Positions 11,835 through 37,590 of a stretch of DNA of 37,639 nt are shown here, piece after piece. The stretch covers positions 15,723,787 to 15,761,425 of the forward strand of contig JAHRHZ010000002.1 in the NCBI GenBank assembly GCA_024137785.1, written 5' to 3'. The DNA is from Ginglymostoma cirratum (taxonomy: Eukaryota). The notes below the pieces were generated by a model, which ran no database searches, was not told the origin of the DNA, and worked only from the letters and a program-made list of their open reading frames with translations. The translations under genes and the position numbers were made by a program. Positions within the stretch are counted from its first letter, which is position 1, and each line of letters begins with the position of its first letter.

Positions 11835-11895
11835 ATGGATCCCCGATCCCTTCTGGTGTTGCTGCTCGCTCTCCTCCGGGCGATCGCTGCAGGAG
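11835..11895 (+). CDS. Exon 1: signal peptide [20 protein letters not shown]
   Basis: ATG in good context (gcggATGG) within a CpG-rich region; Leu-rich core ending in small residues (AIAAG); phase-1 donor G|gtgagg, typical of Ig-superfamily leader exons. Confidence 0.9.
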
Positions 11896-14800
11896 GTGAG
11901 GATCTGGCTGAGGGAGGGAGCATTGAATACCCGCAGGGTCTGCAGGATACGGGGCGCCGGATCCTGGCAGTGGATCCCATTCCCCGGAGCGACCTGGGAG
12001 CAGCTCCGGCCCCGGGATCTCTCTCTCTCTCTCTCTCTCTCAGCCTTTCTGCAGAGACATGTTGAGAATCGAGAAGTTTCTCTTCAGTTAAAAGTTTCAT
12101 CCCGTCGCCTTGGGGCTTGCAAATGGAAATTGTCTTTTCTTGTATTTCTTCCAGGGTTCCACTGTTTCCCCCAACTCCAACCCACTTCACCCCACCCTTC
12201 TCTCCCGGCTCTATGGAGCTCTTCCCTCCCTTCCAAGGCTCTCTAAATTCACCTGTTTCCCTCTGGGTTGTTTCATACTTGCAGGAATCTCCCAGCCAAC
12301 TTTCTCTTCTTTTCCCACAGGGCTCATTCATCCCCTCCTCAATCTCAATTACCCCTTCTCACTCCCTCGATCTCCCCATTCCCATTCCCCCCTCCCCATG
12401 CTCTGTCGTCCTCTCTTTCCCCATGCCCCTTCCCCCTCACTCTCCCCATGCCCGTTCCCCCACTCTCCCGGTCCCTTAAACCCCCTCATCCTTCTCCCTT
12501 TGCTTATACCACCTTCTTTCCCTCCTGCCATCTCCACACACCCCTTTCCAAAGAGTTTGGGAGACACAGACTATTACTCTAAACAAAGTATGATTTGACA
12601 TTGAAAAGAAACTCAAAGGAAAACTTTATTGAACTACAGACTTTCTTTGAACTATGCTCTTTCTCCCTCCTCTCCATGTATCCCTTTTCTCTCTTCCGTT
12701 CCCCCAGTACCCTTTCTTCCCATTTCTGTAAAAAAAATCCTGTAGCCATTTCAATCTTTGGCTAAGTCCACTTCATTACCATACGTTACTTGGTCACGAT
12801 CACATTTCTGTTTTGTGGGGTCTTGCTGTGTGAAAATTGACTGTCGGGTTTTTCACACTACATCAGTGATTTCACTGGCTGTGAAAGAGATTTTACAGAG
12901 ATCATGACAGGCGCTGTATAAGTGAGAATCTTGTGTAGAGCTGGATGAACACAGCAGGCCAAGCAGCATCAGAGGAGCAGGANNNNNNNNNNNNNNNNNN
13001 NNNNNNNNNNNNNNNNNNNNNNNNNNNNNNNNNNNNNNNNNNNNNNNNNNNNNNNNNNNNNNNNNNNNNNNNNNNNNNNNNNNNNNNNNNNNNNNNNNNN
13101 NNNNNNNNNNNNNNNNNNNNNNNNNNNNNNNNNNNNNNNNNNNNNNNNNNNNNNNNNNNNNNNNNNNNNNNNNNNNNNNNNNNNNNNNNNNNNNNNNNNN
13201 NNNNNNNNNNNNNNNNNNNNNNNNNNNNNNNNNNNNNNNNNNNNNNNNNNNNNNNNNNNNNNNNNNNNNNNNNNNNNNNNNNNNNNNNNNNNNNNNNNNN
13301 NNNNNNNNNNNNNNNNNNNNNNNNNNNNNNNNNNNNNNNNNNNNNNNNNNNNNNNNNNNNNNNNNNNNNNNNNNNNNNNNNNTCACATGTTAATGGATTA
13401 CTTTTGTTTCTGTTTTTCATGTCAATCACTTGGAGGGGACAATGTTGTGGCTGCCATTGGTTCATCAGTTTTACTGGATCCTGATCACGGAGCGAATCTC
13501 AGCGACAGTCAGATTGAATGGACGTTCAATAACAGCAGTGGAAAACTTGTTACTATTTTGGATTACGTACCAAATTCCCCAATCCAGAAACCAAATACAC
13601 ACTTCAAATCCCGTTTACGTTTTAATGCATCCAATGGATCAATGATGGTAGACAGTCTAAAACTCGGTGACCAAGGAATTTATACCATCACGGTGAATGG
13701 TACCTGGGAGAGGAGCATGGATCTGAAACTCATAGGTAAGCAATTTCAATACTTTATCACTTTGAAAATGACGGACATTTCAAATCATGAAACAGTTTAC
13801 AGCTTAAGGACTCTGTCATTGAATTGGGACAGGAATAAGCCATTCAGCTCCTCAAACCTATTCTACCCTTCCATGGTTGATCTGTACCTGGTTTCCATTG
13901 ACCTGCTTCGTGCCTTTCTGCCAGCTCCATGACCCAGCAGGAAACCTATTGATCTCATCTGGAAAATTTCAACTGACCCCAGCAGTCAATTCCATAATTC
14001 TTCCTATGGTGGTGTTGGGAGGGGGGAATAGTTAAATGATTTGTGTGTAAAATGGTCCAGCTGTAGCTTTTGAGATTATTCCGTCTTGTTCTGGGTTGTT
14101 CCATCAAGCAAATGTATACTGCTTGTCTTCATTCAAGATTAAACTAAAACTACTGATCAAGATGGAAGAAAGAAATGACAGAAATTGACCTTCAGCTTCT
14201 GCTGTCGTGCTGTATCTGTCATTCCGTCATTGTGGAATTCCTTGGGAATTGTGACCTATGATCTGTTGCCCTACTAGTCACCATAGTCCTGGAGGCTGCT
14301 CTCTCATTGAGACAGAGATGAGTTTTACCTGAGGGTCACCACATCTTAGGGAAGGGGCAAAGTTGAAAAAGTGGGATCTTCATGGTGACCTTAGCTAAGT
14401 ATGAGAATTGAACCCACACCCATTGGCATTACAGACCTGTATTGGTAGGGAGTTAGTTAGCTCAGTTGGCTGGGCAGCTGTTTTGGGTGCAGAGTAATGC
14501 TAACAGTCTGAGTTCACTATGAAGGCCCCATCTTCTTGACCTCATCCCTCTTTGTGGCATGGCGACCCTCAGATTAAACTACTACCAGTCCATGACTCAT
14601 GCACTGGAATGCCTCAGACATCATTCTTCATCGAAGTAATATTCTCTGTTGTGATTTTTTTAATTAGTCATCTGGCTTGTAAGAATACCAGTGTCAGCAC
14701 TCTTCAGAACGTAAACCATCCCAGCAGTACGGATCCCAATTTTCCTAGAATTAGCAGACACTTTTCCCAAACTGTTCTTTGAACCACACATTCACTTGTC

Positions 14801-17800
14801 TAATCTTATCCATCCTGTTGCCAATTTGCACGTGGCTCAGGTAGTAATCCAGAGATTATTACTTTTAAGATTCTGCTTTTTAAATTGGCATTTAATGTCT
14901 CACATTATCTCAGGAGAACCTGTTTCCTAACTCTGGTGCACATCGGTACTAACAATACTGGATCCTTCCCATCCCGCTGCAAATTCTCCGGCCTAGAGCG
15001 TCCCGAATCCTGGCACTGGACAGACAACACGGTGATCCGGACTTGCTGAGGAGGAGAGTGTCCGTCCCCCCTCACTAAACTGTCCCCTATATCACTACAC
15101 TCCTTACTCCACCCCCTCGACTTGAATGGCTCCCTGCAGCATGGTGCCGTGGCCAGTGAGCACATCTACTCTGCAGCCCTAACTCTCATCCTCAAACCTG
15201 TGGGGCCATTATAAAGGCTGAGGGTCCTGTGCTGCTACCCCCTGGGACCCCCTTTACCTGCCTCACTTGTTCCTAACCACTGACTGAATCAGGCCATCCC
15301 ATCATTTAGCGTGTGACTACCGCCTGAAATAAAGTGTCCAGGTAACATTCCCCTCCATCTTGATGTACTCCAATGTCTGCAACTTGACGTCCAGCTCGAT
15401 ATCTCTGATTTGAAGTCCCTGTAAACCTCATGCCCTTACTGCGGATATGTTTCCCCAGGGGACACTGGAATCCAGAAACTCCCACAGGGTGTAACTGCGG
15501 CTTATTCCCTGCCCTCTCTCCTTTGTGTTCATTAATTAGTAATTGCTAATTAGTTCATTTGTAACTAATACAGCCTCTGCCTCCCTCAGCGCTGCCATTA
15601 AAAAGACACTTGAAGGGAATGGGTGAAGAAAGAGAAGGTGGATAGTATTAGGATTGTGGTTAACCGTTCACCCATTTTGGGGATTTCAGACCAGGCTGTT
15701 CGCAAGTGACGTTTGTGTAATATATCGTGAAAATGTTCCCGATGAGTTAAGTACAAAGTGCAATTGGGCTAAGAAAGAGAGGTTGGAACTCTGTCAATGC
15801 CTCAGGAGAAGCTGCAAAAAGCGAAAAACCCTCGTGTACAGTGTTAATATCACAGTCCGTCTAATGTTCCAAGGATATGGATTCAAACCCCACCATGGTA
15901 AATGATGAATCTTTGTCCTGCTCATAAAAGCATGAGAGGGCATCCATTCAAAGTGATGTGCAAAAGAAGCACAACAGTGATGTGAGGAGGAAAAAAAAAC
16001 TTCGGGTGAAAGGGCAGGAGACTGGCCAGGGGAAAGTTAGTTGAGAGTGGAGCGAGAGAAAGCGACGTGCAGCGATGTCTGCAGCTTGACATCCAGCTGG
16101 GCCGAAGCAAGGGGAAAGCTGGGCAGTGTTACAGAGGTGGAGGTGTAGATAGCCTTTGTGATAGGATCAGAGGTTCGTCTCTACTCCAAAGCCAGCTGAG
16201 CTATATGTGAAAGACAGACCAGTTATTAAGCATACTAGCAGAATGCGAAGTAATAATACTGCCTTAACACTCGTTTCTTTTACCTGTTCAGAACCACTGT
16301 CAAAACCTTCGATTGTCAGTAATAGTACCTGTGTGGATACTCCCATTGAACTCATTTGCCAGGTGTCTGGGGGGAAAGAGGACTCTATTCTGTGGTGGAA
16401 AGACAACAAGATGTTAACAAGTAGTCAATATTATCAGTTAGTGCAAAACAACAGCACGTTGATTATTTCTGAAGCACAAGTATCAGACTGCGGGACCTAC
16501 ACTTGCACTGTAGAAAACCCTGTTAGCCAGAAGAATACTTCATATTCTCTCACGCTTCGTGGTGAGTCATGCCAATTGTTGACTTATTTTTTTTTCAAAG
16601 TAATACATTGCTGATCTCGTTTCCCTTCAATTTTTAACTTTGTATGTTTTCACCTTCACCTTTGAACTGGGAGAATATTTTACCGGAAAGGATGGTTGAT
16701 GAGCATGGCCGATGTTTGAGAAAATAGTTTGTGATGGGTCCTTGAGGAAGAAGCATTCTGGGAAGGGGAAAAAACCATGGTTGACCAGTGAAGTTAAGGA
16801 TTGTATCAAATTAAAAACAAAAACATTGATTGTGGCAAAGATAAGTGGTAAACCAGAGGTTGGGGAGAGTTTTAAAAGCCAACAGAAGGTGATCAAAAAG
16901 AATGGAGAAAATAAACTATGAGGATAAGCTACAAAATAATATAAAAATACACAGCAAGAGCTTCTTTAGTTATCTAAAAAGGAAAAGAGAGGCCAGAATG
17001 ACCATGGTGGCCTTAGGGAACAAAGCAGGAGAAACCAATAAATGGCAGAATCAAATAAATACTTTGCATCTGTCTTCATGGTGGAGGATATTAATGACAA
17101 TTACTTCCAAAAATAATAAATAATCATGGGGCTAAATTTGGTGGTCTGGGGGGAAGAGATGAAAATAGTAATTATCACTAGAGAGAGCGTACTAGGAAAA
17201 TTAATGGGACTAATAACCAATAAATCTACTGAACCAAGTGGTTTGCATGCAAAGATGCTATAGGAATAGTGGATACCCTGGTAGGAATCTTCCAATAATC
17301 CTAAGATAATGGAAAAATTCAAGGAGTTTGGAAAACTATCAATGTAACACTTTATTCAAAAAGAGAGAGAGTAAGAACAGGTAACTTTAGGCCAGTTAGC
17401 TTAACATCTATCATGGAAAATTTTAGTGACGATTACAAAGGACTTAATGGAGTCTTTATTAATGTATAATATAATCAAGTAGAGTCCGTATAGCTTCACA
17501 AAGGGGTAAGTCACCACAGTGCCAGAGGACTCATGAGAGAGAGATAACAGGTTGTGGTTTAACATGAGGGTCACCACAGACAAGGAGCAAGATTCAGAAG
17601 GCAGGATCTTCATGGTAATATCAGCCAGTTCAAGAATCGGACCTACACTTGGCATTACCAAACCAGCCTGTCTAGCCAACTGAGCTAACCTGATGTGGGA
17701 AGCGTGAAATACCAAATGAAAGTCCTTTGATTTACTTTTCTGATTGTGGAATCTCTGTTCAATTTTGTGACAGCGTGGAACATAATTTGCACTGCATCTG

Positions 17801-20800
17801 AAGTATGATACCAGTGTTAAATATGTGAAGCAAGTGCGGTTTTATAATCTATCACATAATGCCTTGAATAAGAGCAATTATATTGAAAAATGTACCCATT
17901 GGGAATTTGTAATCTGGTGTGAAAGTGTAGAAGGGAATGGTAAGGGATTTCGGAAGATTGTAGATAGAAGGTATTTGCTTTCCTGAGTGGTTTTGGAACA
18001 GTGAGATGAGAGCATATCCTAATGGTACCCTGTGTGGTCCAGGCAGATCTAATGGTGAATAGGAAAGTCCCAATTATCCACCACATCTGATCAAGTCTGT
18101 GTCCCATTGATTTACAAAGGAGTGTAAATGCTTGTCCTTCCAAATCTAATCACCTTCGAGCATTTGCGATGAAGTTGCACCAGTCTTTCATCCCACTGGA
18201 TTGTTTCTGCCCTCCAGAAGTCTATACTACATTGGCTTGCTGTTTACTCATGTCAGCCTAGTTTTCTGCCAACAGCAAATGTCAATATTGGGCTCCTAAC
18301 GCCAATTCAAACCACCCGTTTACAGCTCGGAGCCAGTGCCAAACAAAGCCAGTTGCCTTAAGTGCTTAGTTTTCCGCCAACTATCTAAATTTGTACTTAC
18401 TCATATTAGGAGGAATATTATTCAATGGCAGGATTTCAGGAAGGGAAATGAACGAGAAGCAAAAAGATTTCAGGATGCAACTCCAGAGCATGGGGGTGTG
18501 CATATGGCTGAAAGTACCTTGGAAGGAAAACACAGTGAGAAGTTTGAATAGTGGGATGAGAATGTTACATTGAAGACATTGTAGGATGTTCACCAATGTA
18601 AATCAGTGAGGACAAGGGTGGTAGGGCAGAGGAAGTTGGCAAAGGATCACATGCAACTGACACATATTCAGGTGGGCCGACCTTTAGGATGGACAGACAG
18701 TGGGAGATGGGTGAGGAAAAGGTGGTGTAGGCAGGGTTGCTGAATATTTTTAAGAGGGAAGTAGATGGATTCCGGTTAGGCAGGAGAGTTAAAGGTTATC
18801 ACGTGTGGATGGCAACGTGGAATTTGGAACACAAACACATCGACCATGATCTTATTGAACAGCAGAGCAGGTTCATAGGGCTGAATGGTCCACTCCTGCT
18901 CGTAATTCCAATGCTTGTACCTATAAGGTTTGGAATAGTCGAACCTGGAAGTGAGAGGGGGTTAAAAGGTCAGTATTTGAGTTGGGTTGAAGTCAGGGGC
19001 GAAGTGGAGAGCGGATGAAGGCAGTATGTATGATAGGATTGCGGGGTTGGGACTTTGAACCTATTTTCAGGAATGTGATATGTTTAAAGACAATGCGGGA
19101 GGGTGGCACAGCGGCTCAGTACGTTACATAATATCATTACAATAGCATTATGTGAAGCAGTAATGATGTCTACTTCTCAGACCTGTTTAGTGATGTTCAG
19201 GAGCACTTGCTCACATTAATGCTGCCTGTAGCTGATAACTAGCTTGTGGAGGGCTCTGATGTTTGTCTTGTGTTCGTGCCGCAGGAAGTGTACTTTTTTA
19301 AAAACTCTGAAGAGATTATTTACTATCTTTAAAAGGTGGAAGAAGTTCCTGTTTGTATTTTTAAAATCTGATTTGGCTCACACGATGACTTTCTTGTAAA
19401 ATTTCTATTTCAGGCCTGACACGTCTGCACCATAGCATTTTGGCATTTTCTGTTGCAGCATTGGTCACTGCTGGTGTCATACTGATCACTGCTGTTGCAA
19501 CTCATTTGGATAAAACCTTGCATGTGAGCGAGGACGGTAAAACATGTAAGTGAAAATTGTTTTTGCTGAAGGTTCAAAACTTAGAACTTAATTTTGCAGA
19601 TCCTGCAAAACTTTGAAAAATGATGCCCATGTCATGTTAAATATTGATCCTCAATTCTCAGAATCGACCCTTTGATTGCATGAACATTCTCTGCTTGAGT
19701 ATTGTTGATATCAATTTGCGTATTTTCCCAGGGCTTCCATTTATTCGAGAGAAGATGCGGCATTTGTTGAAGTTTGCACCAGTGTTTTCACTCCTTTTCT
19801 TTTCCGTTGCATGCGTATGTTGGATACTGACTGAAGGTAGCGTATGTTCACTCACTGTTACTTTTCTCATTTAGTAACTGCATTTCCAGTCTTCTTCAGA
19901 AATGCTGGACTGGGTGTTAGGGGACTCAGTGGTCACCAGATAAAAGTTAGGCAGGGCTTGGTGAGGGAAGTTGGGAAAATCTACCTACAATATCGCTGGC
20001 TGTTCCTCAGCGGTTTAACACCTGGAGCAGTGTTAATGTCCTTGAGGAGAGACTTCCAATTCAGTCACTGGCAGCCCCACTCCAGAACGCAGCCCAAACT
20101 CCAGGCAGCTCACAAAGAAGAGAAGCCCAAGCATTCGGGATGGATGGGTAACTCCGGGGTATCGCCAGGGCAGACCCCAGTGAGGGAGGTCATGGTGGTG
20201 GGGGGATGATTTGCGAGGCTGGGGTGAGGGCAAAAGGGACTTTCAGGAGCAGAATTCCTCCTGAAAAGGTAGTCCACCTCTGTCCTGCCCAGCCCTCACA
20301 ACTAAAGCTACAGGGCTACCTGCTGAGCAAGGGCCTTCCCTTGCTGTGGGTAAAACAAAAATGGCAGAGATGGGCTGAGGCTCCTCAGTGACCACCAGAC
20401 CAGCTGCCAGGGGGAAGGAGGGCCGTCTAATGCCCGATAGGGATTAGATAATAGAAAAGACACCAAGCTGGCGTCAAAGCAGAAAACAGAAGTGGATTGG
20501 AGGCCAGCATGGTGGCACTGAAGTCAGCACTGGACGGGTTCGATTCCTGCCTCGGGTGACTGTCTGTGTAGAGTTTGCACGTTGTCCCAGTGTCTGCGTG
20601 GGTTTCCTCCGGGTGCTCCGGTTTCCTCCCACAGTCGAAAGATGTGTGCGTTGGGGTGGATTGGCCATGCTAAATTACCCATAGTGCCCAGGGATGTGCA
20701 GGCCAAATGTTTTAGCCATGGGAAATGTGGGGATAAGGGGATGGGTCGGGGTGGGGCGTACTGAATGGGTTGTACTTCGGAGTGTCGGTGCAGATGCAGT

Positions 20801-23800
20801 GAGCTGAATGTCATTTTGCCACGCTGTAGAGATTCGATGATTCTAATAACAGTGACAAAGTCTAGCTTAGAGTGAAAAATAATGGAGGGCCATTTTCTGA
20901 CAGCACTGCACCCCGTGAAATTGACTGACAGCCATGAGAGTGTGGTTTGTGGACGGGATGGAGTGCCTTAGTGATTGTCTTCCATATTTGTAGATAATAT
21001 TGAGAGCTGCGACTTCTCTAAAGATGCTTCTTGCATTTTTAAATGCACCTTCGCAATACCAGGTGGTTCCTAGCTCATGCATTATTTTTTTCTTTGCTTG
21101 AAGTACAATCTGGATCCGAGCAGCATGCGATCACCAGCGTTACTGAAAGATAAGCAACTTACTGTGGCTGCCTTTGAAATTTGGCATTCTTGCATGTGTC
21201 CTGATGAGTGCAGAATGAAATGGCTCAATGGCATGTCCCTTTTCTTTTAATTCATTCATGGAATGAGGGCATCGCTGGCTAGGCCAGCATTTATTACCCA
21301 TCCCTAATTGCCCAGAGGGCAGTTAAAAATTAACCACATTGCTGTGGGTCTAGAGTCACATGTAGGCCAGACCAGGTAAGGATGGCACTTTCCTTCCCTA
21401 AGGGGCATTAGCGAACCAGTTGTTTTTTTTTTACATCAATTAGTCTCTTACTTCCAGATATTTGTTGAATTTAGATTCCACCATCTGTCACAGTGGGATT
21501 CGAGCTCTGGACCCAGAACATTACCTGCGTCTCTGGATTAACAGTCCAGCAATAATAGGACTACACCATTGCCTCCCCTGTTTCTTAGGAACTTTGAAGT
21601 TCTGTGCTACCAAGTAATTATCACCTGCTTTTCCTACAAAACAGGGTCCTTTTGCCTTTAACTGAGATGGAGTAAGGGACCTTGACTCTACACCTCATTC
21701 TAAAGAGAGTCCCTTCATTTGTGAAATGCTCTCTTAATGCTGTGCTGAATTGGGAGCTTAGATTATTTGCTCGCCTCTCTGAAATGGAACGTCGGTCTCA
21801 GATCCTCTCTCTTTGGGTTACTGTTTCTGCTAAATACCAGGCAGACTGTACCATACATCCATGAGGGTGGCTGCCTGAGTTTCCATCGATTACCTGAAAT
21901 AGATGGAGAATGGAATGGATTCTCACAGGACTGTGCCCTGATCCATCCAGCTTTCCTGGACGCAGAACATCCGAGCAATCCAGCAAGAGGAAGTCTTCCC
22001 CGTACATTTCTTCACCGGTTTGCATTCCCCAGAGGCACAGCNNNNNNNNNNNNNNNNNNNNNNNNNNNNNNNNNNNNNNNNNNNNNNNNNNNNNNNNNNN
22101 NNNNNNNNNNNNNNNNNNNNNNNNNNNNNNNNNNNNNNNNNNNNNNNNNNNNNNNNNNNNNNNNNNNNNNNNNNNNNNNNNNNCTCCTTCTGTTTTATTT
22201 GTTCACAGTTTGCCTAGACATGCACCATACGCTGACTTCACTGAGTCAATTCATTGCAAACCCAATCCCAATGGTGCATATAATAGGACATGCTGGTAAG
22301 TGTTCAAATGTAAAGTCATAGCCCAGAAATGGTTTCTGAAAGCAGCGACCCACAAAGAATCTTGTAATCGGAAGAGCCGATCACAGCTGTAGGTGATATA
22401 ACCTACCGCTGAATGAAGAGAGAGAGTGATCAACAGGAAATCCTTGCTTTGAGAATTGTTAGAGCATAGATTGCTCTGTCATTGGGAATTTTAAAAACAA
22501 CATTTACATTCAGAAGATATGAGTGTTGCTGCCAGCATTTATTTCCCATGAGAAGGTTGTATTGAGTTGCCTTTTTGAAACTACCACATTCCATTTAGGA
22601 GAATGATATCCATCCTCTTCCTCTTAAGGCAGGGACCATTGCATCTTTTCAAGGAGAACAGAGCCTTGTGATTAGGCTTAGGATTACTCTCGCAACATAC
22701 CCTCACGAACCCAATGGGCCAAGTGACTTCCTTCTCCTCTTTCAAAACTTGAAGTCAAGTTAAACAGCCACTGATTGGGCGCTGTAACAGAAACACAAAC
22801 TAACAGTGAAAGGGAACTTAGAATGGGCAAACTTGAAGCTTAGTAAATCGATGTACCGTGTCAGGGGTCAGCCCACCATGGAGCCCACTGGCCTTGAAAG
22901 GCTCCACATGCTCCCTCTTCATGGACACTTGAGCATGGACATGTAAACAGCAAAATGGGGGCAGTCAGTCCAGTATAGTGATCTCCTCCATAGCCCACTG
23001 CCTGGACTGGTTCCATATTTACACTTTGATCTTTGACCTTCCGATCTCTCCACAGTCTACCTACATGGGGTGCCTGTGGATCAGGAGCGTGGTGCCAAAA
23101 TCAGGGGCAGCCCCTTCAAAAAAACTTAGGAGGGGTTTCAAGCGAGAACATTCAACAGAAATGTGGAAAACCATTTCACCCCAGACCACAAAAACTACAT
23201 GTGGCCTGGCAGCCATTTATTTATTAGTGACTGTGTTCTTTGCTGTAAAAATATATGGGTCTGTAAGTTAAGAATTGCCCGAAGGTACATCCAGTTTTTA
23301 TATTTATCCCTTTATCAACCTATGACTGTGTGTAATTTTGTTCACTTTTTTGATCTTTTAATAGGGCATTCTGGAATCAATGTTGTTCTGTCAATGTCTT
23401 GGCTTCTCCATCTCACAGTAGTACTTTTAAATTATCGTTTCATCTGTGACAAACCCATGTTAAACAAGATCATCTCGAACAAGTGTAAGTTGACAATTGT
23501 AGTTGTTAATCTCACTCTTATCCAAACCTTTCCCAATGGTAAGAGCCTTAATTAAATTTTCGCTGGCAATCTCCACTCCGTTGAGACAGTCCCATCAATT
23601 TTAGCCCACAACGTTATATCCTCATTACAGGAAAGATGTGGAAGCTTTAGAGAGGGTGCAGAGGAGATTTACCAGGATGCTGCCCGGACTGGAGGGCAGG
23701 ACTTATGAGGAAAGGTTGAGGGAGCTAGGGCTTTTTTCATTGGAGCGAAGAAGGATGGAGAGGTGACTTGATAGAGGTGTACAAGATGATAGAGACATAG

Positions 23801-26800
23801 ATAGAGTGGATAGCCAGAGACTTTTTCCCAGGGTGGAAATGACTATTACGAGGGGGCATAATTTTAAGGTGATTGGAGGAAGGTATAGGGGAGATGTCAG
23901 AGGCAGGTTCTTCACACAGAGAGTGGTGGGTGTGTGGAATGCGCTGCTGGCAGTGGTAGTGGAGTCAGATACTTTAGAGACTTTTAAGTGACTCTTGGAG
24001 AGGTGAATGGAGGATAGTAAAATGTAGGGTATGCAGGGTAGATTAATCTTAGTAGGATAATAGGTTGGCACAACATTGTGGGCCGAAGGGCCTGTACTGT
24101 GCTGTGCTGTTCTATGTTTCTATGTTACAACACTAGACCTTACGCCCGGTGACTTGAATGCTTCTCCTTTGAGACGTATCATTATTATGCAGTTGGCTGC
24201 TGTCCCTCCCAAAGTCAGTAGACATGTTGGTGGCTGTGTCTCCAAGCAGATCATTTTAGTCACCGCATGACTGAGGCAGTGAGCTGTCACAAACTTTATT
24301 TTTGGCTCTCCACCCATTTTCAAGTTACCATTGTTTCGCTTGCGAGCGAAATGGAACAGGAGAGCTGCAGTTCATGCTGTCATCGCTCATTTTACATTAA
24401 GTTTGTGTTACGAAGGAGAAAATGGCCGAACCGCTCTGATAATTAAATTAAAACACAAGCCCCAATCTGTTGTGGTAGGAGTCGGGGCTCCCCTCTAATA
24501 AACCTCCCCAAAACCCCCCGAGAAGCTCGTCTTTCCCCTCATAATCTATTAAAAGAGTGGTTAAAAGAAAGAAAATCCCTGATCTCCACTTTACAAGTAA
24601 CAAGAAACAATTTATTTCCCAACAATGAACAAATTAACAAAATTACTAACAAACTGACAATTCCCTCTCAGACTACTAACTACTCCCTAACTGGTCTACA
24701 TTCTACTGGAATGCTGTTTAAATAAAGACAAGCCCCACTAAAAGAAACCCAATGAATAAGAAGCAATAAATTATAACTTATTTTCTCCAATTTGACACTG
24801 ACTGTCTTCTGGAATATTCTGTCTTCTCTGGTCTCTTCACAAACACTTTTCTTGCACTAATTCTGCTGTTAGGGATGTTTTATCTCTATAATTTAGTTAA
24901 TGAGGACTTTGAGCTGAAGTACTATGGTACCCTTGATTAATTAGTTGGGCTTTCTCTGAGCACTGAATGGTGCTAACTCTGGCAGTTGGCCGATGGCTCT
25001 CTCTTTCAGATGGCAGTTAGCTCTCCCCAATTTTCCAAATGCCCTTGTCTAATATATCTGTAATGACATTATCAAATTCTTATAATATGATTGGTTTCAG
25101 GTTGTAAACACCATCAGATTTAAATTCAATTGGCTTTCTGTATCTAGGTGCTTCTTTTAAATTAATTGGCCAAATTCAAACTTGTTGTCTTGGAAGAAAC
25201 TGCTGCTTGGCTGTTCTAAACAAAATGTTTCCATCTGGGCGCACTCTGTGCACACGTTTTTATAAACTTCCGAGCGCAGACAAAGCACTAGCTCCTAAAG
25301 AGGTCATGACACGCTTTTCTTCACAATCATCTTTACCAACAAATTCTAACTTCCGACCTTCCAATTCTCAAATATGCGACCCAACTTTGTCACAGTTGGG
25401 ACCAGCCAACATGCAGGAGCGGCAAGCCGGGGATGTAAATCTGCCAGAGTGTCTCTGAAAAGTTTGGGAAGCCCTTCCTGTCATTAGTCAGGTCAGCCTG
25501 TGGCGGTCTATCTCTGAGAAACAGGCTGCTAAACCCACTGCTTCTGAAGGATTGACTATGCCTTTGGCTCGAACGCCTGTTTCCAACATGCAGGTGCTCC
25601 CATGTTTGGAGATTCATCACAAAGAGTCCAAAGCAATGGATGGAATTTGTATATCAACAGCTCCTGGGATGACTAATCGCTGGAAGAGGTCTCCATCTGT
25701 GTGAAGTCAATGCTGATTGAGATAAATAAGCTAGCAGAATCGTAGAAACCATACTGTGTGGAAGGGGGCCATTTGGCCCATCAAGTCCAGACTGAGTCTC
25801 GGATGAGCATCCCAGCCAGACCCACCTTATCCCTGTAACCCCACATTTCCCATGGCTAACCCACCTAGCCTGCACTTCCCTGGATACTATGGGCAATTTA
25901 GCATGGTCAATCCAACTGATCTGCACATCTTTGGACTGTGGGAGGTAACTGGAGCACCCAGAGGAAACCAATGCAGACGCAGGGAGAATATGCAATCTCC
26001 ATGCAGATAGTTGCCCGAGGGTGAAATTGAACCCTGGTCCCCGGCACTGTGAGGCAGCAGTGCTGACCACTGAGCCACCATGCTACCCCAGCAAGTGAAG
26101 TAAGATCAGAGTAGAAATCTGGAGTTAAGGTATCGGGTTCATCATCACAGAATCGAAGAATTATTACACTTCAGAGGTGGGTATTCAGCCCATCATACCA
26201 GCTCTATTATCTAACCTGACTATATTATTTCCTGCCAATTTTCCCCATATCCCTGCATATCATTGCATCAATTATAGCTATAAAAAGACCATAGCACCTA
26301 TAAGCTATTCAGTCAGAGATCATACAGCGCGGAAACAGACCCTTCAGTCCAACCAGTCCATGCCTAACATAATCCCAAACTAAACTGATCCCACCTGCCA
26401 GCTCCTGGCCCATATCACTCCAAACCTTTCCCATTCATGTAGTTATCCAAGTGTCTTTTAAACTTTGTAACTGTGTTTACGTTCACCACTTCCTCAAGAA
26501 GCTCATTCCACATGCGAACCATATGTACGACTGGCCCGACAAGCATTGTATATAGTTCCTTGAACGTGGCGTTATGTGTAGATAGGGTGGTGAAGATGGC
26601 ATTTGGCATGCTTGCTTTCATTGGTCAGAGCATTGGATTTGGGAGTTTGGACGTCATGTTGCGATTATACAGGATGTTGGTGAGGCCACTTTTGGAGTAC
26701 AGCATCCAGCTCTAGTTGCCCTGCTATAGGAAAAGTATTGTTAAATTGAAAAGAGTGTAGAACAGATTTAGAAGGATCTTACTGGGACTTGAGTTGTAAG

Positions 26801-29800
26801 GAGATCCTGGATAGGCTAGGATTTATTTCCCTGGAGCATTGGAGATTCAGGGGTGAGTTTATAGAAGATTATAAAATCATGAGGTCCATTAATAAGGTGA
26901 ATAAAAAGGTCTTTTCCCCAGGGTAGGGAAGCTCAAAACTAGACGGCATAGGTTAAAGGTGAGAGGGGAAAGATTTATAAGGAACCTTAGCGGCAACGTT
27001 TTCATGCAGAGGGTGGTGCGTATGTGGAATGAGCTGCCAGAGGAAGTAGTGGAGGCTGGTACAATCTTTAAAAGGCTTCTGAATGGGTATATGAGTAGGA
27101 AGGGTTTAGAGGTATGGGCCAAACATAGGCAAACGGGACGAGTTTAATCTGGGAAGCCTGGTCGGCATGGATGATTTGGACCAAAGGGCCTGTTTCCTTG
27201 CTGTATGACTCCAAACAAATGGCCTGAGGTATATTTGAGGGGTGAATATTAGCCAAGATAGCAGCAAGTTCACCTGCTCTTCATAAAGGAAAGCCATTCA
27301 AATGAGTGGAAGCAAAGCATTCCAGTCAATCATCTAATCCTAAAGACAGCATCTCTGACAGTACAGCGCTCCTGCAGTACTGCACTGAAATGCTTGCTTA
27401 GATTACATGTTCCGTCTCTGGAGAAGGGCTTGAACTTATGCCTTTGGGTTCAATGTTCCTCTATTTACAATTGTTTGATCCCCTGGGAACATAAGTACAG
27501 CAGAAGAGCTGGTGAATAGCACACACCTATGGGAAGGAGGCCACATGATTTATCATATGGGCTCCGTTGTTCCTTCCTGCTAGATTTTATTGAATTCACA
27601 CACTTAAATGATCCAATCATCACCAGGACAGCGGCAAATTCTCCGCTGTATTTCCTTGACCAGTTGCGTTACTCAGGAGCACAGTTAGAGGCGGATAGGG
27701 TTTGTGTGTGTTTTTCTCTCTCTCAGCAAATCTCCTCTTTCACCTGTTCCCAGTTTGCCGTGTTGTCCTGAATGTCGCAGCTCCTGTCATTGCTGTGTTT
27801 GGGCCGAGTATCCTCATCAGAGAAGTAATTAAACAAACCGGTGAGTGCTGTCTGACAAAATTAATTAATGAATTCTGAAAGTAACATCCCATCAGGAGTT
27901 GTATCATTAGGAGAGCTCACTGCTGAGTTATTTTGGCCGGTTTTCATTGAAACCCGTCAAACTCCTAAGTTTACAGTGCCATCTGCCCTTTGTTCAATTG
28001 CTTCAAATCTGTTTCCCCTTCTCTACGTGTTTTTTCTCACAGTTACCCAGATGCAATGATTCCTATCTCAAACATGCCCTGTGACAAAATATTTCCATGC
28101 TTCAAAACCTTTGTAAATAAGTTCTTCAAACCTTTACTTTCATTCTTGACTGACTTTTCTTTACTGAAAACCCATATTCATCGAAGGAAATATTTTCTGT
28201 ATTTGTTCTATTTATCTCCTTAGAATGTCTACAAACTTTCTCATCTGTGATTTCCAACTGTCCATTCCTTGACACCTGATGGCCTTTAGTTTCTTCAGTA
28301 ATTTTCTTCCAATCCCTTCATCAGTTCACTTGTAAAAGATCCCACATTGTAATCTAATCTAGAATAAAATAGAATATCCTTTCAATTATCCTTTAACTGA
28401 TTAAACCCAACACTTCCTCCAAATCACATTCTACTTGAGGGCAGCACAGTGGCTCAGTGGTTAGTATTGCTGCCTCACAGCGCCAGGAACCTAGGTTCAA
28501 TTCCACCCTCAGGTGACTGTCTGTGTGGAGTTTGCATGTTCTCCCCACATCTGTGTGGGTTTCCTCCCACAGTCCAAAAAATGCCAGTTAGTTGGGTTGG
28601 CAAAGCTAAATTGCCCATAGTGTGTGGGAAGTGCTGGTTAGGTGGTTTAGCCATGGGAAATTCAGATAGGGTGGTGGGTGGGCTGCTGTTCAAAGGGTCA
28701 CTCTGGGCTGAATGGCCTGCTTCCCATACTGTAGGGATTCTACTTAATGTGCCTGGCTATAACATCTTATGATTGTCTGCAGTGAAGTTTTTAATTGTCA
28801 TGATTAGAATTTTAATTTAGCTATTGACATGATGATCTCTATTCACAGATAGCGATTGTGGCTCAGCAGCCATACTGCCATCAACTATAATTCTGACCAT
28901 GGTGATTACATTGGTTATTCTTGCTGTAACCTTTGTACCCTATAAAATATGTAAGTAATGGTGGGTGAAGTTGTTTCAGATCTACTATTAATGGACATAT
29001 ATTGTTGTGAGCAGAAACCTTGACTGGATTTTCCTCTTCATTCTCTCCTGACCATCTGCAGTGCAGATTGGGCCATCCCAAACTCCTCACAGGATCCCTA
29101 CGATGCAGAAACAGACCATTCAGCCCACTGAGTTCACACCAACTGTTTAAAGAGCATCCCTCCCACACCCTGTTATCCCCGTAACCCTGCATTTCCCATG
29201 GTTAATCCACCTAACCTGCACATCTTTGGATTCTGGGAGGAAACTGGAGCACCCAGAGGAACCCCATGCAGACACAGGGAGAATGTGTAAACTGTACACA
29301 GTCACCCAAGGCCAGAATTGAACCTGGGTCCCTGGCACTGTCAGGTAGCACTGCTAAGCACCGAGCCACCATGGCCCATAACCTTCCAACTAATTTGATT
29401 AGAAACAGATTAGGAATTTGCTGAAGTTGCCTAGTTTGTGTCAGGAACACTGAATTGGAGAATCTTGATCAAGGCTCTTCAGTCATTCTGCATTCACTGG
29501 TGGTATTTTGTGAACCGTAGTACTCTCTCCTTTTTATTACTGCTAGGTTTCTGTGTAATCGATGAGTTTCCCTTAACTGCATGACAGTAATGACACCCTG
29601 CATTAAACTGATCAGGTGAAGTCACCATAGCCCTTCTGCGCTATCATTAGAGAGAGATGCCTGGTGGTGGTTTAACCTGAGGGATCCATATCTCAGTTGA
29701 GGGGAGAGATTGAGAGGAGGTTGAGGGTAACCTCAGCCTGTGTGGGAGTCAAACCCATGCTGTTGGTGTCACTGTGCAGCCTACTGAGCTGACCGACCCC

Positions 29801-30844
29801 ACCAGTTCCAAGGAAGGGTCACTGGACCTGAAAGTCTGCTTTCTCTCCACAGATGCTGTTGAGTTTCTAAGAGCAACTTCCATTTTTGTTTCTGATTTCC
29901 AGCATCCACAGTTCTTTCCATTTTTATAAAATTCAACCTATATTGTATTGCGGAAAACGCATTTGGACTAATCCAAATTTAATGAAAACCTTTGTTTAGT
30001 TAATCTTTACATCGATACAACTGATTGTTCATTCACGTCAACAGACATCGAATGGAAAAAACAACCAGTTGGAACTCCTCCTGCAAGTACGAGTTTCGGA
30101 GGTTCTGATCATCATCAATGTACTGTAAGTATTAGACTTTAATAGAAATTAGAAGTTTGACAGGCAACTGTGCCCTGAATCTTCATAAAAGTAGTGCAAA
30201 TGCAAGATTCTCTTTTATTATGCCATTTGCTTGGAGAGTCAGAAAAGCCAGAGTAACTATTGAGCTTACTAGGAACAGAGGTGTTTGATTCTGGGGATGT
30301 ACAGATTACAAGAATTATCTCTCATAAACTATCCTCTCCATTAAGTGTTTAAAAGGAAAATCAAATCCTTGAGGCAAAGGGTACAAAGTGCAAACAATTA
30401 ATTTTATATACAAGCATTTAATACTAGAAAAACATATTGCCAATTTTCCTTTCTCAATTGCAGTAAATGATCTTTTGAAAATAATGTAAGTTTTCAAAAA
30501 TAAAGGAAAAGGTGCTGTATTGAGATGATTTGAAATGCTGTATTGAAACACCTGTATTGCAGTATGGTCCACAGTGAATATGTTTATTATGTTAGATAGG
30601 GCAAACATTACTCGTTCGTAAAATGTAACCTTGACAAATATACGTGGTTCACATCTCAAAGGGAAAAGAGCTCAGCTTAATTCTTCGATATAAAATTCAA
30701 ACAAAATTCATGTGAAGAAGTTGGACCAATAACTGATTTTACGTTTTTATGTGTTTAAGTAAACAAAAATGGTGTTCTCAGGCTTTAAATAAGTTTACCT
30801 TTACCTTGCTGTAGGAGATGAAGAAAACACCCTCAAGTCCATGA
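11835..30844 (+). CDS. Spliced gene, 10 coding exons (11835-11895, 13421 or 13436-13735, 16292-16561, 19414-19545, 19732-19836, 23365-23484, 27754-27840, 28849-28950, 30045-30124, 30815-30844): signal peptide + IgV + IgC2 + 5 TM + short cytoplasmic tail, ~428-433 aa
   Basis: The exons join in one open frame (1302 nt with the 13421 start, 1287 nt with 13436). Introns are GT-AG except the 13421 option. Introns 1-8 are phase 1 and intron 9 is phase 0. The loops predicted to be cytoplasmic are basic, as the positive-inside rule expects. Confidence 0.82.
12018..12041. repeat. (CT)n microsatellite in intron 1
   Basis: Seen directly. Confidence 0.9.
12795..12925 (+). mobile_element. Deu-domain SINE (SacSINE1-like) 3' fragment
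   Basis: tgtggggtcttgctgtgtgaaaattgactg...ggcgctgtataagtg resembles the recalled DeuSINE core and tail. Confidence 0.6.
12932..12982 (-). mobile_element. Penelope-like 3'-terminal fragment running into the N-gap in intron 1
   Basis: gtgtagagctggatgaacacagcaggccaagcagcatcagaggagcagga matches the PLE terminus seen at 4430-4478 and 34700-34748. Confidence 0.85.
13421..13735 (+). CDS. Exon 2: V-set Ig domain lacking the B-F disulfide (CD2/SLAM/CEACAM/HEPACAM-type N domain)
   Basis: [11 protein letters not shown]...IEWTF...[28 protein letters not shown], with the C-strand W and DxGxY motifs and no Cys. Donor G|gtaagc at 13735. The acceptor is ambiguous (tttttcat|13421 or gag|13436). Confidence 0.9.
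13810..14110 (-). mobile_element. Old CR1 3' fragment
   Basis: aggaataagccattcagctcctcaaaccta... resembles the reversed CR1 tail. Confidence 0.55.
14850..15500 (-). mobile_element. CR1 ORF1 (SGNH/GDSL esterase-like) remnant
   Basis: IGDSLVRG motif in ORF 14905-15165. Confidence 0.65.
16292..16561 (+). CDS. Exon 3: C2/I-set Ig domain
   Basis: EPLSKPSI...ELICQV...ILWWKDNK...NNSTLII...[14 protein letters not shown] has the canonical C, W and YxC plus the NPVS motif seen in CEACAM/SLAM/HEPACAM C2 domains. Acceptor ttcag|AA, donor G|gtgagt, phase 1-1. Confidence 0.95.
16670..17505 (+). mobile_element. CR1 ORF2 internal fragment (intron 3)
   Basis: [25 protein letters not shown], and a [10 protein letters not shown]-coding stretch at about 17380-17410; multiple frameshifts. 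Confidence 0.85.
18712..18912 (+). mobile_element. CR1 3' end
   Basis: ccatgatcttattgaacagcagagcagg...gggctgaatggtccactcctgctc tail. Confidence 0.75.
19414..19545 (+). CDS. Exon 4: TM1 ([23 protein letters not shown]) and start of cytoplasmic loop 1
   Basis: Acceptor tttctatttcag|GC, donor T|gtaagt, 132 nt, open in the phase-1 frame. Confidence 0.9.
19732..19836 (+). CDS. Exon 5: basic loop (REKMRHLLK) + TM2 ([19 protein letters not shown])
   Basis: Acceptor tattttcccag|GG, donor GAAG|gtagcg (somewhat weak), 105 nt, phase 1-1. Confidence 0.82.
20501..20845 (+). mobile_element. HE1-type V-SINE (intron 5)
   Basis: V-domain gggtttcctccgggtgctccggtttcctcccacagt. Confidence 0.88.
21250..21580 (-). 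mobile_element. tRNA-derived SINE, same family as 930-1192
   Basis: Reverse-complement match including ggccagaccaggtaaggatggc...ttccttccct. Confidence 0.75.
23365..23484 (+). CDS. Exon 6: TM3 ([18 protein letters not shown]) + basic cytoplasmic loop 2
   Basis: Acceptor ttttttgatcttttaatag|GG, donor T|gtaagt, 120 nt, phase 1-1, open frame. Confidence 0.8.
23627..24125 (+). mobile_element. CR1 3' end (intron 6)
   Basis: [33 protein letters not shown]; terminal (ttctatgt)n repeat. Confidence 0.9.
24404..25394. mobile_element. Possible solo LTR in intron 6
   Basis: TG...tgtcaCA-type ends, clustered CCAAT/ATTGG boxes and poly(A)-like signals; left boundary and TSD not convincingly identified. 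Confidence 0.3.
25736..26087 (-). mobile_element. HE1-type V-SINE, full length (intron 6)
   Basis: Head with A/B boxes, V-core and tail on the minus strand. Confidence 0.88.
26310..27212. mobile_element. CR1 fragments (about 26310-26520 -, 26545-27212 +)
   Basis: [15 protein letters not shown] and [19 protein letters not shown] motifs. Confidence 0.85.
27340..27440 (-). mobile_element. Deu-domain SINE 5' fragment
   Basis: Reverse complement agtgcagtactgcaggagcgctgtactgtcagagatgctgtcttt resembles the Deu core. Confidence 0.6.
27754..27840 (+). CDS. Exon 7: TM4 ([19 protein letters not shown])
   Basis: Long pyrimidine tract then ttcccag|TT, donor G|gtgagt, 87 nt, phase 1-1. Confidence 0.85.
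28438..28745 (+). mobile_element. HE1-type V-SINE (intron 7)
   Basis: gtggctcagtggttag...ggttcaattcc head and V-core. Confidence 0.88.
28849..28950 (+). CDS. Exon 8: extracellular DSDCG + TM5 ([17 protein letters not shown])
   Basis: Acceptor ctctattcacag|AT, donor T|gtaagt, 102 nt, phase 1-1, strongly hydrophobic. Confidence 0.88.
29090..29376 (-). mobile_element. HE1-type V-SINE (intron 8)
   Basis: Reverse-complement head and V-core. Confidence 0.88.
29618..29800 (-). mobile_element. tRNA-derived SINE, second unnamed family (other copies about 4010-4155 +, 14278-14430 -, 14448-14590 +, 17508-17690 -)
   Basis: Shared gtcaccatag...tttaacctgaggg..cacca body and a ggtcagctcagt / ggttagctcagttggct head. 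Confidence 0.7.
29807..29918 (+). mobile_element. Degenerate short PLE-type terminal repeat, same family as 540-650
   Basis: aggaagggtcactggacctgaaa...ccacagatgctg...tttttgtttctg is similar to 551-648; the hammerhead core is broken (ccaagga). Confidence 0.6.
30045..30124 (+). CDS. Exon 9: cytoplasmic tail [27 protein letters not shown]
   Basis: Acceptor caacag|AC, donor ACT|gtaagt (phase 1-0); WKK stop-transfer-like residues follow TM5. Confidence 0.78.
30815..30844 (+). CDS. Exon 10 coding part: EMKKTPSSP-stop
   Basis: Acceptor tttaccttgctgtag|GAG, TGA at 30842-30844. The frame assumes direct splicing from exon 9; a missed micro-exon would give [14 protein letters not shown]-stop instead. 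Confidence 0.62.
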   Translation, partial: EMKKTPSSP

Positions 30845-34689: not shown

Positions 34690-35864
34690 GATAACAAAGT
34701 GTAGAGCTGGATGAACACAGCAGGCGAAGTAGCATCATAGGAGCAGGAAAGCTTGACGTTTCGGGCCTAGACCCTTCGTCAGAAATGGGAGAGGGGAAGA
34801 GGGTTCTGAAATAAATAGAGAGAGAGCAGGAGGTGGAAAGAAGATGGATAGAGGAGACGATAGGTGGAGAGGAGACAGACAAGTCAAAGATGAGGGGATG
34901 GAGCCAGTAAAGGTGAGTGTAGATGGGGAGGTAGGGAGGAGATAAGTCAGTCCAGGGAGGATGGACAGGTCAAGGGGGCAGGATGAGGTTAGTAGGTAGG
35001 AAATGGGGATGCGGCTTGAGGTGGGAGGAGGGGATAGATGAGTGGAAGAACAGGTTAGGGAGGCGGGGACGAGCTGGTTTTGGGATGCGGTAGGGGGAGG
35101 CGAGATTTTGAAGCTTGTGAAATCCACATTGATACCATTGGGCTGCAGGGTTCCCAGGCTGAATATGAGTTGCAGTTCCTGCAGCCTTCAGGTGGCATCA
35201 CTGTGGCACTGCAGGAGGCCCAGGATGGACATGTCGTCTGAGGAATGGGAGGGGGAGTTGAAATGGTTCGCGACTGGGAGGTGCAATTGTTTATTGCGAA
35301 CCGAGCGCAAGTGTTCTGCAAAGCGGTCCCCAAGCCTCTGCCTGATTTCCCCGATGTAGAGGAGGCCACAACGGGTACAGCGGATGCAGTAAACCACATT
35401 AGCAGATATGCAGGTGAACATCTGCTTGATGTGGAAAGTCTTCTTGGGGCCTGGGATGGGGGTGAGGGAGGAGGTGTGGGGGGAGGTGTAGCACTTCCTG
35501 CGGCTGCAGGGAAAAGTGCTGGGTGTGGTGGGGCTGAAGGGGAGTGTGGAGCGGACAAGGGAGTCACGGAGAGAGTGGTCCCTCCGGAAAGCAGACAAGG
35601 GTTGGGAGGGAAAATTGTCTTTGGTGGTGGGGTTGATTGCAGATGGCGGAAGTGTCGGAGGATGATGCGTTGGATCCGGAGGTTGGTGGGGTGGTACATG
35701 AGGACGAGGGGGACTCTTTTTGGGTTGTTATTGCGGGGACAGGGCGTGAGGGATGAGTTGCAGGAAATGCGGGAGACACGGTGGAGGGCGTTCTCAACCA
35801 CTTCCTTCGACCAAGGAAGTTGCGGTCCTTAAAGAACGAGGACATCTGAGATGTACGGGAGTGG
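34690..35864 (-). mobile_element. Second Penelope-like copy, 5'-truncated (RT C-terminal region, linker, GIY-YIG endonuclease, 3' end)
   Basis: Highly similar to 5960-7136 in reverse; VVYCIRCTRCGLLYIGEIRQRLGDRFAEH in ORF 35188-35598. Confidence 0.93.
34755..34782 (-). ncRNA. Minimal hammerhead motif in the 3' end of PLE copy 2
   Basis: Reverse complement reads CTGACGA-A-GGGTCTAGGCCC-GAAA-CGTC, with an intact core and GUC triplet. Confidence 0.7.
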
Positions 35865-36127
35865 CTGAGGCATTCCACTCCCGTACATCTCAGATGTCCT
35901 CGTTCTTTAAGGACCGCAACTTCCTTGGTCAACTTCCTGCAACACTCAGATTCACATTCACACACACAGACTATCATGCAAACTCATATCTACATGTTCA
36001 TGGACTCACATCCATATATACATAATGACACAGTTACACCTTGGGATATACACAGCCATAGTTAAATGTGCAGACAGTCACACAGAGAGTTATTTTTCTC
36101 CAAATTTATAGAACCTGAAGCTATTTG

Positions 36128-36288: not shown

Positions 36289-37096
36289 ACGGCATATATG
36301 AGGGTCTGTGATATGAGGGGAATGGGAGATGTGAGGGCCTGTGATATGAATGATATGAAGGGGAATGAGAGATATGAGAGCCTGTTATATGAAGTATGTG
36401 AGGGGGTTGGGAGATTTGTTGGAGGATGGAAGATACGGGGTTGGGAGAGTGAAAGAAATGAGGCCTAAAATTTGGAGGATCTGAAGAAGTATATGAGTTC
36501 TGCGATGTGGAAATTGTGAGGAGGAACAGGAGATATAAAGGGGAGTAGGAGATATGACAGGAATGGGTGTGCGATTTTAACCTTGCTTTTCGAGAATCCT
36601 GAGGCCCTGAATCTACACTGCGGTTCATGATTCCCTTGGGGGTGTGTGGTTTGATTGTGAGCCATGACTCATTGAGAATCACTGCATGCAACAGAGTTGG
36701 CTGGTTTGAGACGGTAGAGTTTTGTGACTGTTTATTGGAACGGGTGGTCTGTATTAGGAATGAGTAACTACATCTTTCTAAAAAAAAGGCCAGAGGCAGG
36801 CAGGCAACCTGACTCTAAGAAAATCGGTGCCATGTAACATTTCAGGACGGTGGGTCTTTGTTAGAATTGCTGTGCAAACTCTAGTCTCTCGTGTAGTGCC
36901 CCTTTGTATTTCTGACGATTGTAGTTAAAGAGCTCAGGGCTACATTAAGATGCAAAGGTACCGACATCAAATAGGTCTGACCAGAATTGAGAACAGATTG
37001 CCCCTGGGGAAAAAAAAAGTTCAGAGTGACTCTTAATTAATGTGTTGCAAGTAGGATAGGTCTTATACACAAAACTAGTGCGGGAGTTGAAACTTC

Positions 37097-37590
37097 ATGT
37101 TGCAGTTGTACAGAATGTTGGTGAGGCCACTTTTGGAGTACACTGTACATTTCTGGTTGCCCTGCTATGGAAAGGATATTATTAAATTGGAGAGGGCACA
37201 GAAAGTATTGACAAGGATGTTAACAGGCCTGGAGGGTTTGAGTTATAAGGAAAGGCTGGATGGGCTGGGACTTTTTTCACTGGAGCGTAGAAGGTCGAAG
37301 GGTGCTCTTATAGATGTTCATAAAATCTTGAGGGGTACAGTTAAAGTGAGTAGCAAAGGTCTTTTCTCTAAGGTGGGGGAGTTCAAAACCAAAGGACATA
37401 ATTTTAAAGTGAGGGGAAAAGATCTAAGCGGGACCTGAGGGGCACCTTTTTCTCCCAGAGGGTGGTTTGTGTGTGGAATGAACTGCCAGAGGAAGTGATA
37501 GATGGAGGTACAGTTACAACATTTAAAAGACATTTCGACAAGTACATGAATAGGAAAGGTTTAGAGGGATATGGGCCAAACACGGGGAAA
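37097..37590 (+). mobile_element. CR1 ORF2 C-terminal fragment
   Basis: [12 protein letters not shown]...[18 protein letters not shown]...TKGHNFKVRG. Confidence 0.9.

Follow-up and report, generated by a model that had tools for sequence, protein, structure and literature searches.

Analysis of a 37,639-nucleotide stretch of Ginglymostoma cirratum DNA (hereafter, the window) identified a plus-strand gene for a 457-residue protein composed of a signal peptide, a cysteine-less V domain, a C2 domain, five predicted membrane helices and a short tail. On the reading that we favor, and regard as reasonably probable from comparison of related sequences, the C2 domain would be locked by a family-wide disulfide between C187 and C391 and, in one clade, by a second between C134 and C291, an arrangement probably convergent with that of CD47. 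The protein is CD47-like in architecture but is not a member of the CD47 family, and no kinship between the two was detected by Pfam, profile and fold searches.

Gene structure and membrane topology

Seven GT..AG introns, which connect the signal-peptide exon to the TM4 exon within the initial 17 kb of the gene, were fixed by RNA joints (raw reads X13, one to seven per joint, plus contigs of X4 and X1), and the gene is thus spliced and transcribed. The three cysteine motifs of a preliminary description of this DNA were found where it had placed them on the plus strand: a 12-residue motif at 16324-16359, SDCGTYTC at 16483-16506 and DSDCGS at 28848-28865. Exon 1 (11835..11895; RNA joint 11895/13436 and translation) contains the start codon and signal peptide, and exon 2 (13436..13735; RNA joints and translation) encodes a V-type Ig domain without cysteine, of the CD2/CEACAM N-domain type, with a V-set match in the orthologues P0004 and P0005. 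The membrane-proximal C2/I-set Ig domain of exon 3 (16292..16561; RNA joints, domain match and translation) has CEACAM1/5/6 domains among its nearest folds, and its canonical cysteine pair lies at 16357-16359 and 16504-16506. TM1 and the beginning of the first cytoplasmic loop are encoded by exon 4 (19414..19545; RNA joints, hydropathy and model) and TM2 by exon 5 (19732..19836; RNA joints on both sides and hydropathy). These are followed by exon 6 (22209..22295; RNA joints), a clade-specific insert of 29 codons in the first extracellular loop (ECL1), by exon 7 (23365..23484; RNA joints, hydropathy and charge) with TM3 and the basic second cytoplasmic loop, and by exon 8 (27754..27840; RNA joint 23484/27754) with TM4. 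Exon 9 (28849..28950) encodes ECL2 and TM5; the joint into it is based not on RNA but on splice signals, phase and orthologues, in particular P0003 of the whale shark, the closest protein (329 of 368 aligned residues identical). All coding introns are of phase 1 as far as the TM5 exon, with one exon per helix. The annotated isoforms P0008, P0015, P0024, P0031 and P0001 omit single helix exons; skipping of these phase 1-1 exons keeps the frame, yet would flip or cut the topology.

The cytoplasmic tail would be encoded by exon 10 (30045..30124), as indicated by splice signals and orthologues, and the last coding exon (30815..30844) ends at an in-frame TGA (30842-30844) which stands where the whale shark and zebra shark have glycine. 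The next 23 codons are open and match the tails of those two sharks, so the shortening of the tail is either recent, or confined to one allele, or an assembly error. The introns and flanks are full of decayed reverse-transcriptase-like retroelement frames and many high-copy SINE-like repeats, as is ordinary in shark DNA (4445-6823, 23600-24000, 26500-27150, 34738-35983 and 37090-37560).

The hydropathy profile has five peaks, and lysine and arginine are abundant in the loops between helices 1 and 2 and helices 3 and 4 and at the start of the tail. For both the whale-shark orthologue (C2 domain and membrane part; pLDDT 79) and a horn-shark paralogue that lacks the insert (membrane part; pLDDT 82), AlphaFold predicts five long helices and puts the ECL2 cysteine in a short loop joining helix 4 to helix 5, the location that had been proposed for it. 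A five-helix topology is therefore predicted, with the N-terminus, ECL1 and ECL2 outside. Exon 6 was considered as a sixth helix and rejected, since its loop has no lysine or arginine and the exon is missing in relatives, both of which point to an ECL1 insert. The insert occurs in eight of the 43 sequences compared below, which form a single clade (support 99/95), and is modeled by AlphaFold as short helices. No ITIM-like motif was found in any of 19 family tails or in the tail of the window's own protein; the tails have no ITIM/ITSM-type motifs.

Conservation and co-loss of the spare cysteines

The preliminary description counted three spare cysteines, whereas we count four in the extracellular parts: C134 in the A' strand of the C2 domain (16330..16332), nine residues before the B-strand cysteine; C187 in the DCG motif of the E-F loop (16489..16491); C291, which opens the exon 6 insert in ECL1 (22211-22213); and C391 in ECL2 (28857-28859). 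Its arithmetic of possible pairs consequently fails. We compared these positions in 43 sequences, one per gene, each having both the C2 and the TM5 exon. Conservation of the loop cysteine had been set beforehand as a test of the tether, and C391 was kept in 41 of the 43; C187 was kept in 39, and the two are among the most conserved columns of the alignment. By comparison, C134 was present in nine sequences, the result of two changes on the tree, and C291 in eight. Co-conservation of the cysteines first singled out thus holds for C391 and C187 but not for C134. The conservation of C391 and C187 is not due to chance; in alignments to titin, Robo2 and CEA, by comparison, all 20 DxG-type positions displayed are without cysteine.

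The losses of C187 and C391 also go together. Both were present in 39 sequences, C187 without C391 in none, C391 without C187 in two and neither in two (Fisher p 0.0066, uncorrected for kinship among the 43 sequences). Both sequences that have lost C391, P0006 and P0040, are also without C187, and they do not form one clade (AU p 0.0014), which places the losses on separate branches; the chance, by branch length, that both C391 losses would land on C187-less branches is about 0.005. A sign test on independent pairs gave p 0.5, two independent co-losses being too few to reach significance. The two sequences with C391 but not C187, P0029 and P0050, each have another spare cysteine in the C2 domain. 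C134 is absent from 34 of the 43 sequences, 32 of which retain C391, and is therefore irrelevant to it. The conservation of C391 and its loss together with C187 support the tether as C187-C391. From these comparisons, an Ig-to-membrane disulfide likely exists, and the Ig partner of C391 is most likely C187 rather than C134. The original proposal of a tether from the Ig domain to ECL2 is accordingly upheld with respect to the loop cysteine, but not with respect to the CD47-like C134 as its partner.

The predicted partner of C134 is instead C291. All eight sequences with the C291 exon have C134, the two appear on the same branch, and they occur together again in a paralogue at G000:C2:18.44 Mb; in P0030, C134 is present and the insert exon absent. 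A second, clade-specific bond C134-C291 is thus possible, the link resting on one evolutionary event. The simplest reading of this distribution is that the C187-C391 tether would be ancestral and the C134-C291 bond a later addition.

Alternative pairings

Two other arrangements of the same cysteines deserve consideration. In the first, which we regard as improbable, the bonds of this clade have been rearranged, such that C134 pairs with C187 inside the Ig domain and C291 with C391 to join ECL1 to ECL2, with no Ig-to-membrane tether. The joint appearance of C134 and C291 would fit this arrangement, as would Hemiscyllium P0010, which keeps both loop cysteines although, like P0034 (also with a loop cysteine), it has no C2 domain. 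Membrane-distal duplicates of the C2 domain, which are identical at 76-85 of 86 residues, keep spare cysteines in all four cases, and the copies in P0002, P0011 and P0019 retain both Ig cysteines. The copy in P0027, however, retains a lone C187, so such recent duplicates are uninformative. In addition, C187 occurs without C134 in 30 of the 43 sequences, so its ancestral partner must be sought elsewhere, and in the general geometry of Ig domains the A' strand is separated from the beginning of F by the G strand.

The second arrangement, to which we give slightly less credence still, has no intrachain tether, the cysteines either being free or forming interchain bonds in homodimers or in heterodimers with clustered paralogues. 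At least eight paralogues are clustered on one contig, chicken BG proteins dimerize via an Ig cysteine (PMC5043582, in excerpt), and the number of spare cysteines is odd in several members, including P0030 and many from tetrapods. Eight of ten tetrapod members (P0052, P0054, P0055, P0059, P0060, P0069, P0083 and P0087) have an extra cysteine close to where strand D of the C2 domain begins, which gives them three spare extracellular cysteines; it could pair with C187 instead. Against interchain or free cysteines are the two independent branches on which C187 and C391 disappeared jointly, as a pair predicts, and the even number, four, in the protein of the window. We retain the C187-C391 tether as the preferred arrangement.

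Relationship to CD47 and other Ig receptors

CD47 combines a single IgV domain and an RVVSWF linker with a five-helix fold without known relative and with a bond (C15-C245) to ECL2 that holds the ectodomain for SIRP-alpha binding and signaling (PMC8410850, in excerpt). In the numbering of PMC10902115 (excerpt) its bonds are Cys33-Cys263 and Cys41-Cys114, its IgV domain is in exon 2 and its tails come from exons 8-13, from which five exons are inferred for the membrane part. The likeness to the protein described here comprises an Ig ectodomain, five helices (here predicted), a short tail, a conserved ECL2 cysteine likely bonded to the membrane-proximal Ig domain and a membrane part that apparently derives from five exons in both. 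There are also differences. CD47 has a single V domain with a canonical disulfide, whereas here a cysteine-less V domain is followed by a C2 domain; the conserved Ig cysteine precedes strand B in CD47 and lies in the E-F DxG motif here; and in place of the SWF linker there is a short G-L-x-x stretch without a Trp-Phe pair. Moreover, the pentaspan family is expanded in sharks, and its named matches include no therian or teleost protein. V joined straight to five helices, without C2, was seen in the models P0010, P0028 and P0034; this is the domain count of CD47 without the canonical V disulfide, and could reflect exon loss, skipping or annotation error.

The preliminary description had also taken a shared C-x-D-T as a hint of homology to CD47. 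This hint is not borne out: the tether Cys33 of CD47 stands eight residues before the B-strand Cys41 and C134 stands nine before, which puts the motif one residue out of register, and CD47 is missing from the profile matches. PF04549, the CD47 membrane domain, matched none of nine membrane parts and none of nine further members at E<=10. V-set_CD47 matched an Ig domain of P0006 weakly (E 0.006, under the cut-off), and the CD47 fold was not among the PDB matches listed. It is thus highly unlikely that C134 is the equivalent of Cys33, bonded to C391 in a CD47 homologue: the overall layout of Ig domain, five helices and ECL2 cysteine is alike (PMC8410850, in excerpt) and C134 is near the membrane-facing end of its domain, but 32 of the 41 sequences with C391 have no C134, the spacing of C134 to the B-strand cysteine differs, PF04549 is unmatched in both sets of nine, the SWF linker is absent, and two poxviral CD47-like models align with TM scores of 0.25 and 0.37 and an rmsd of 16 A, values that are model-dependent.

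A distant shared origin of the two membrane parts is possible, since in each of them five helices apparently come from five exons; Cys263, we presume, opens the last helix exon of CD47. On a more speculative reading, unlikely in our judgment, ours would be a second ancient pentaspan Ig family across jawed vertebrates that shares a remote ancestor with CD47, as the helix per phase-1 exon and the cysteine opening the last helix exon would indicate. CD47 would then be a derived offshoot in which C2 was lost and the tether cysteine moved, and the shark clade would be doubly tethered, its second bond coming from a new cysteine-bearing exon. Probably, however, the pentaspan family is a CD2/CEACAM-like ectodomain attached to five one-helix phase-1 exons, convergent with CD47 and not its orthologue.

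The ectodomain is CEACAM/CD2-like. CEA and CEACAM1 were the best matches spanning both Ig domains, CEACAM1/5/6 were among the top folds, and all 18 V domains scored have either no or one cysteine. As in CEACAM, CD2-SLAM and HEPACAM proteins, an N-terminal V domain without the canonical cysteine pair is followed by a C2/I-set domain, and databases call members HEPACAM-, CEACAM-, CD48- or 2B4-like. CD2-SLAM/HEPACAM-type receptors are single-pass or GPI-anchored, and tyrosine motifs are frequent in all these groups, whereas the present family has spare cysteines and no ITIM-like motif. CEACAMs are likewise single-pass or GPI-anchored (PMC4079198, in excerpt), in contrast to the five TM exons here, which are joined in RNA or in orthologues. 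SKINT1 of the butyrophilin family also combines IgV and IgC with several helices (PMC4382165, in excerpt), but it has three helices and B7/butyrophilin-type Ig domains, as opposed to five helices and a cysteine-less V domain, and its example shows more than one origin of multi-pass Ig receptors, which can arise independently.

Distribution of the family

Word-based searches gave matches confined to shark proteins. A profile of nine membrane parts, searched against 1.84 billion representatives (E<=0.001), matched 38 proteins, 28 of them named, from chimaera, sharks, rays, axolotl, newt, caecilian, turtles, birds (including chicken LOC422295), platypus and echidna, and labeled as uncharacterized or HEPACAM/CEACAM/CD48/2B4/VSIG-like. 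None of the 28 named matches was CD47, SKINT, or a teleost or therian protein, and eight of the ten unnamed ones fell within the chondrichthyan clade of the tree. In the same genome as the window, at least eight multi-TM paralogues form two clusters (G000:C2:15.58-15.83 Mb and 18.27-18.45 Mb), and two divergent candidates lie among further C2-like exons at G000:C213:0.94-1.03 Mb. In all ten of these candidate multi-TM paralogues a cysteine falls within the opening codons of the final TM exon, and nine have the E-F cysteine; the paralogue at G000:C2:15.81 Mb has C391 and lacks C187. As a weak control, six related C2 exons that read DSG instead were not followed by a series of TM exons in the 10-30 kb downstream, as judged with an insensitive exon finder and over stretches some of which hold N. 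The second cluster has a SEC22B-like exon (L051, G000:C2:18103833-18103997) some 170 kb away, a weak synteny lead to the CD2/CD58 region, near which human SEC22B presumably lies.

We found no published description of a two-Ig pentaspan family in the literature, and excerpts of PMC13262535, PMC4079198 and PMC5413580 make no mention of one. The family thus apparently is undescribed, and its members range from chimaera to platypus.

Proposed mechanism and significance

In the mechanism that we propose, the C187-C391 disulfide would tie the C2 domain to the helix bundle and so hold the ectodomain at a fixed angle to the membrane, as in CD47. The cysteine-less, CD2/CEACAM-type V domain would thereby face a ligand carried by another cell, and, because the tails lack ITIM/ITSM-type motifs, the signal would run via the helix bundle and lateral membrane partners. 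The clustered expansion in sharks suggests a possible role in immune or epithelial recognition.

CD47 has been described as the immune system's sole five-pass receptor, its fold resembling that of no other protein (PMC8410850, in excerpt). Our results point to a second Ig-plus-five-helix family, annotated just as uncharacterized or HEPACAM/CEACAM-like, in which the same Ig-to-ECL2 disulfide was likely reached via a different cysteine, and chicken LOC422295 makes this family testable at once. If the resemblance is convergent, the tether would prove to be a design rule of Ig receptors with five membrane passes; if it reflects remote homology, CD47 would gain an origin.
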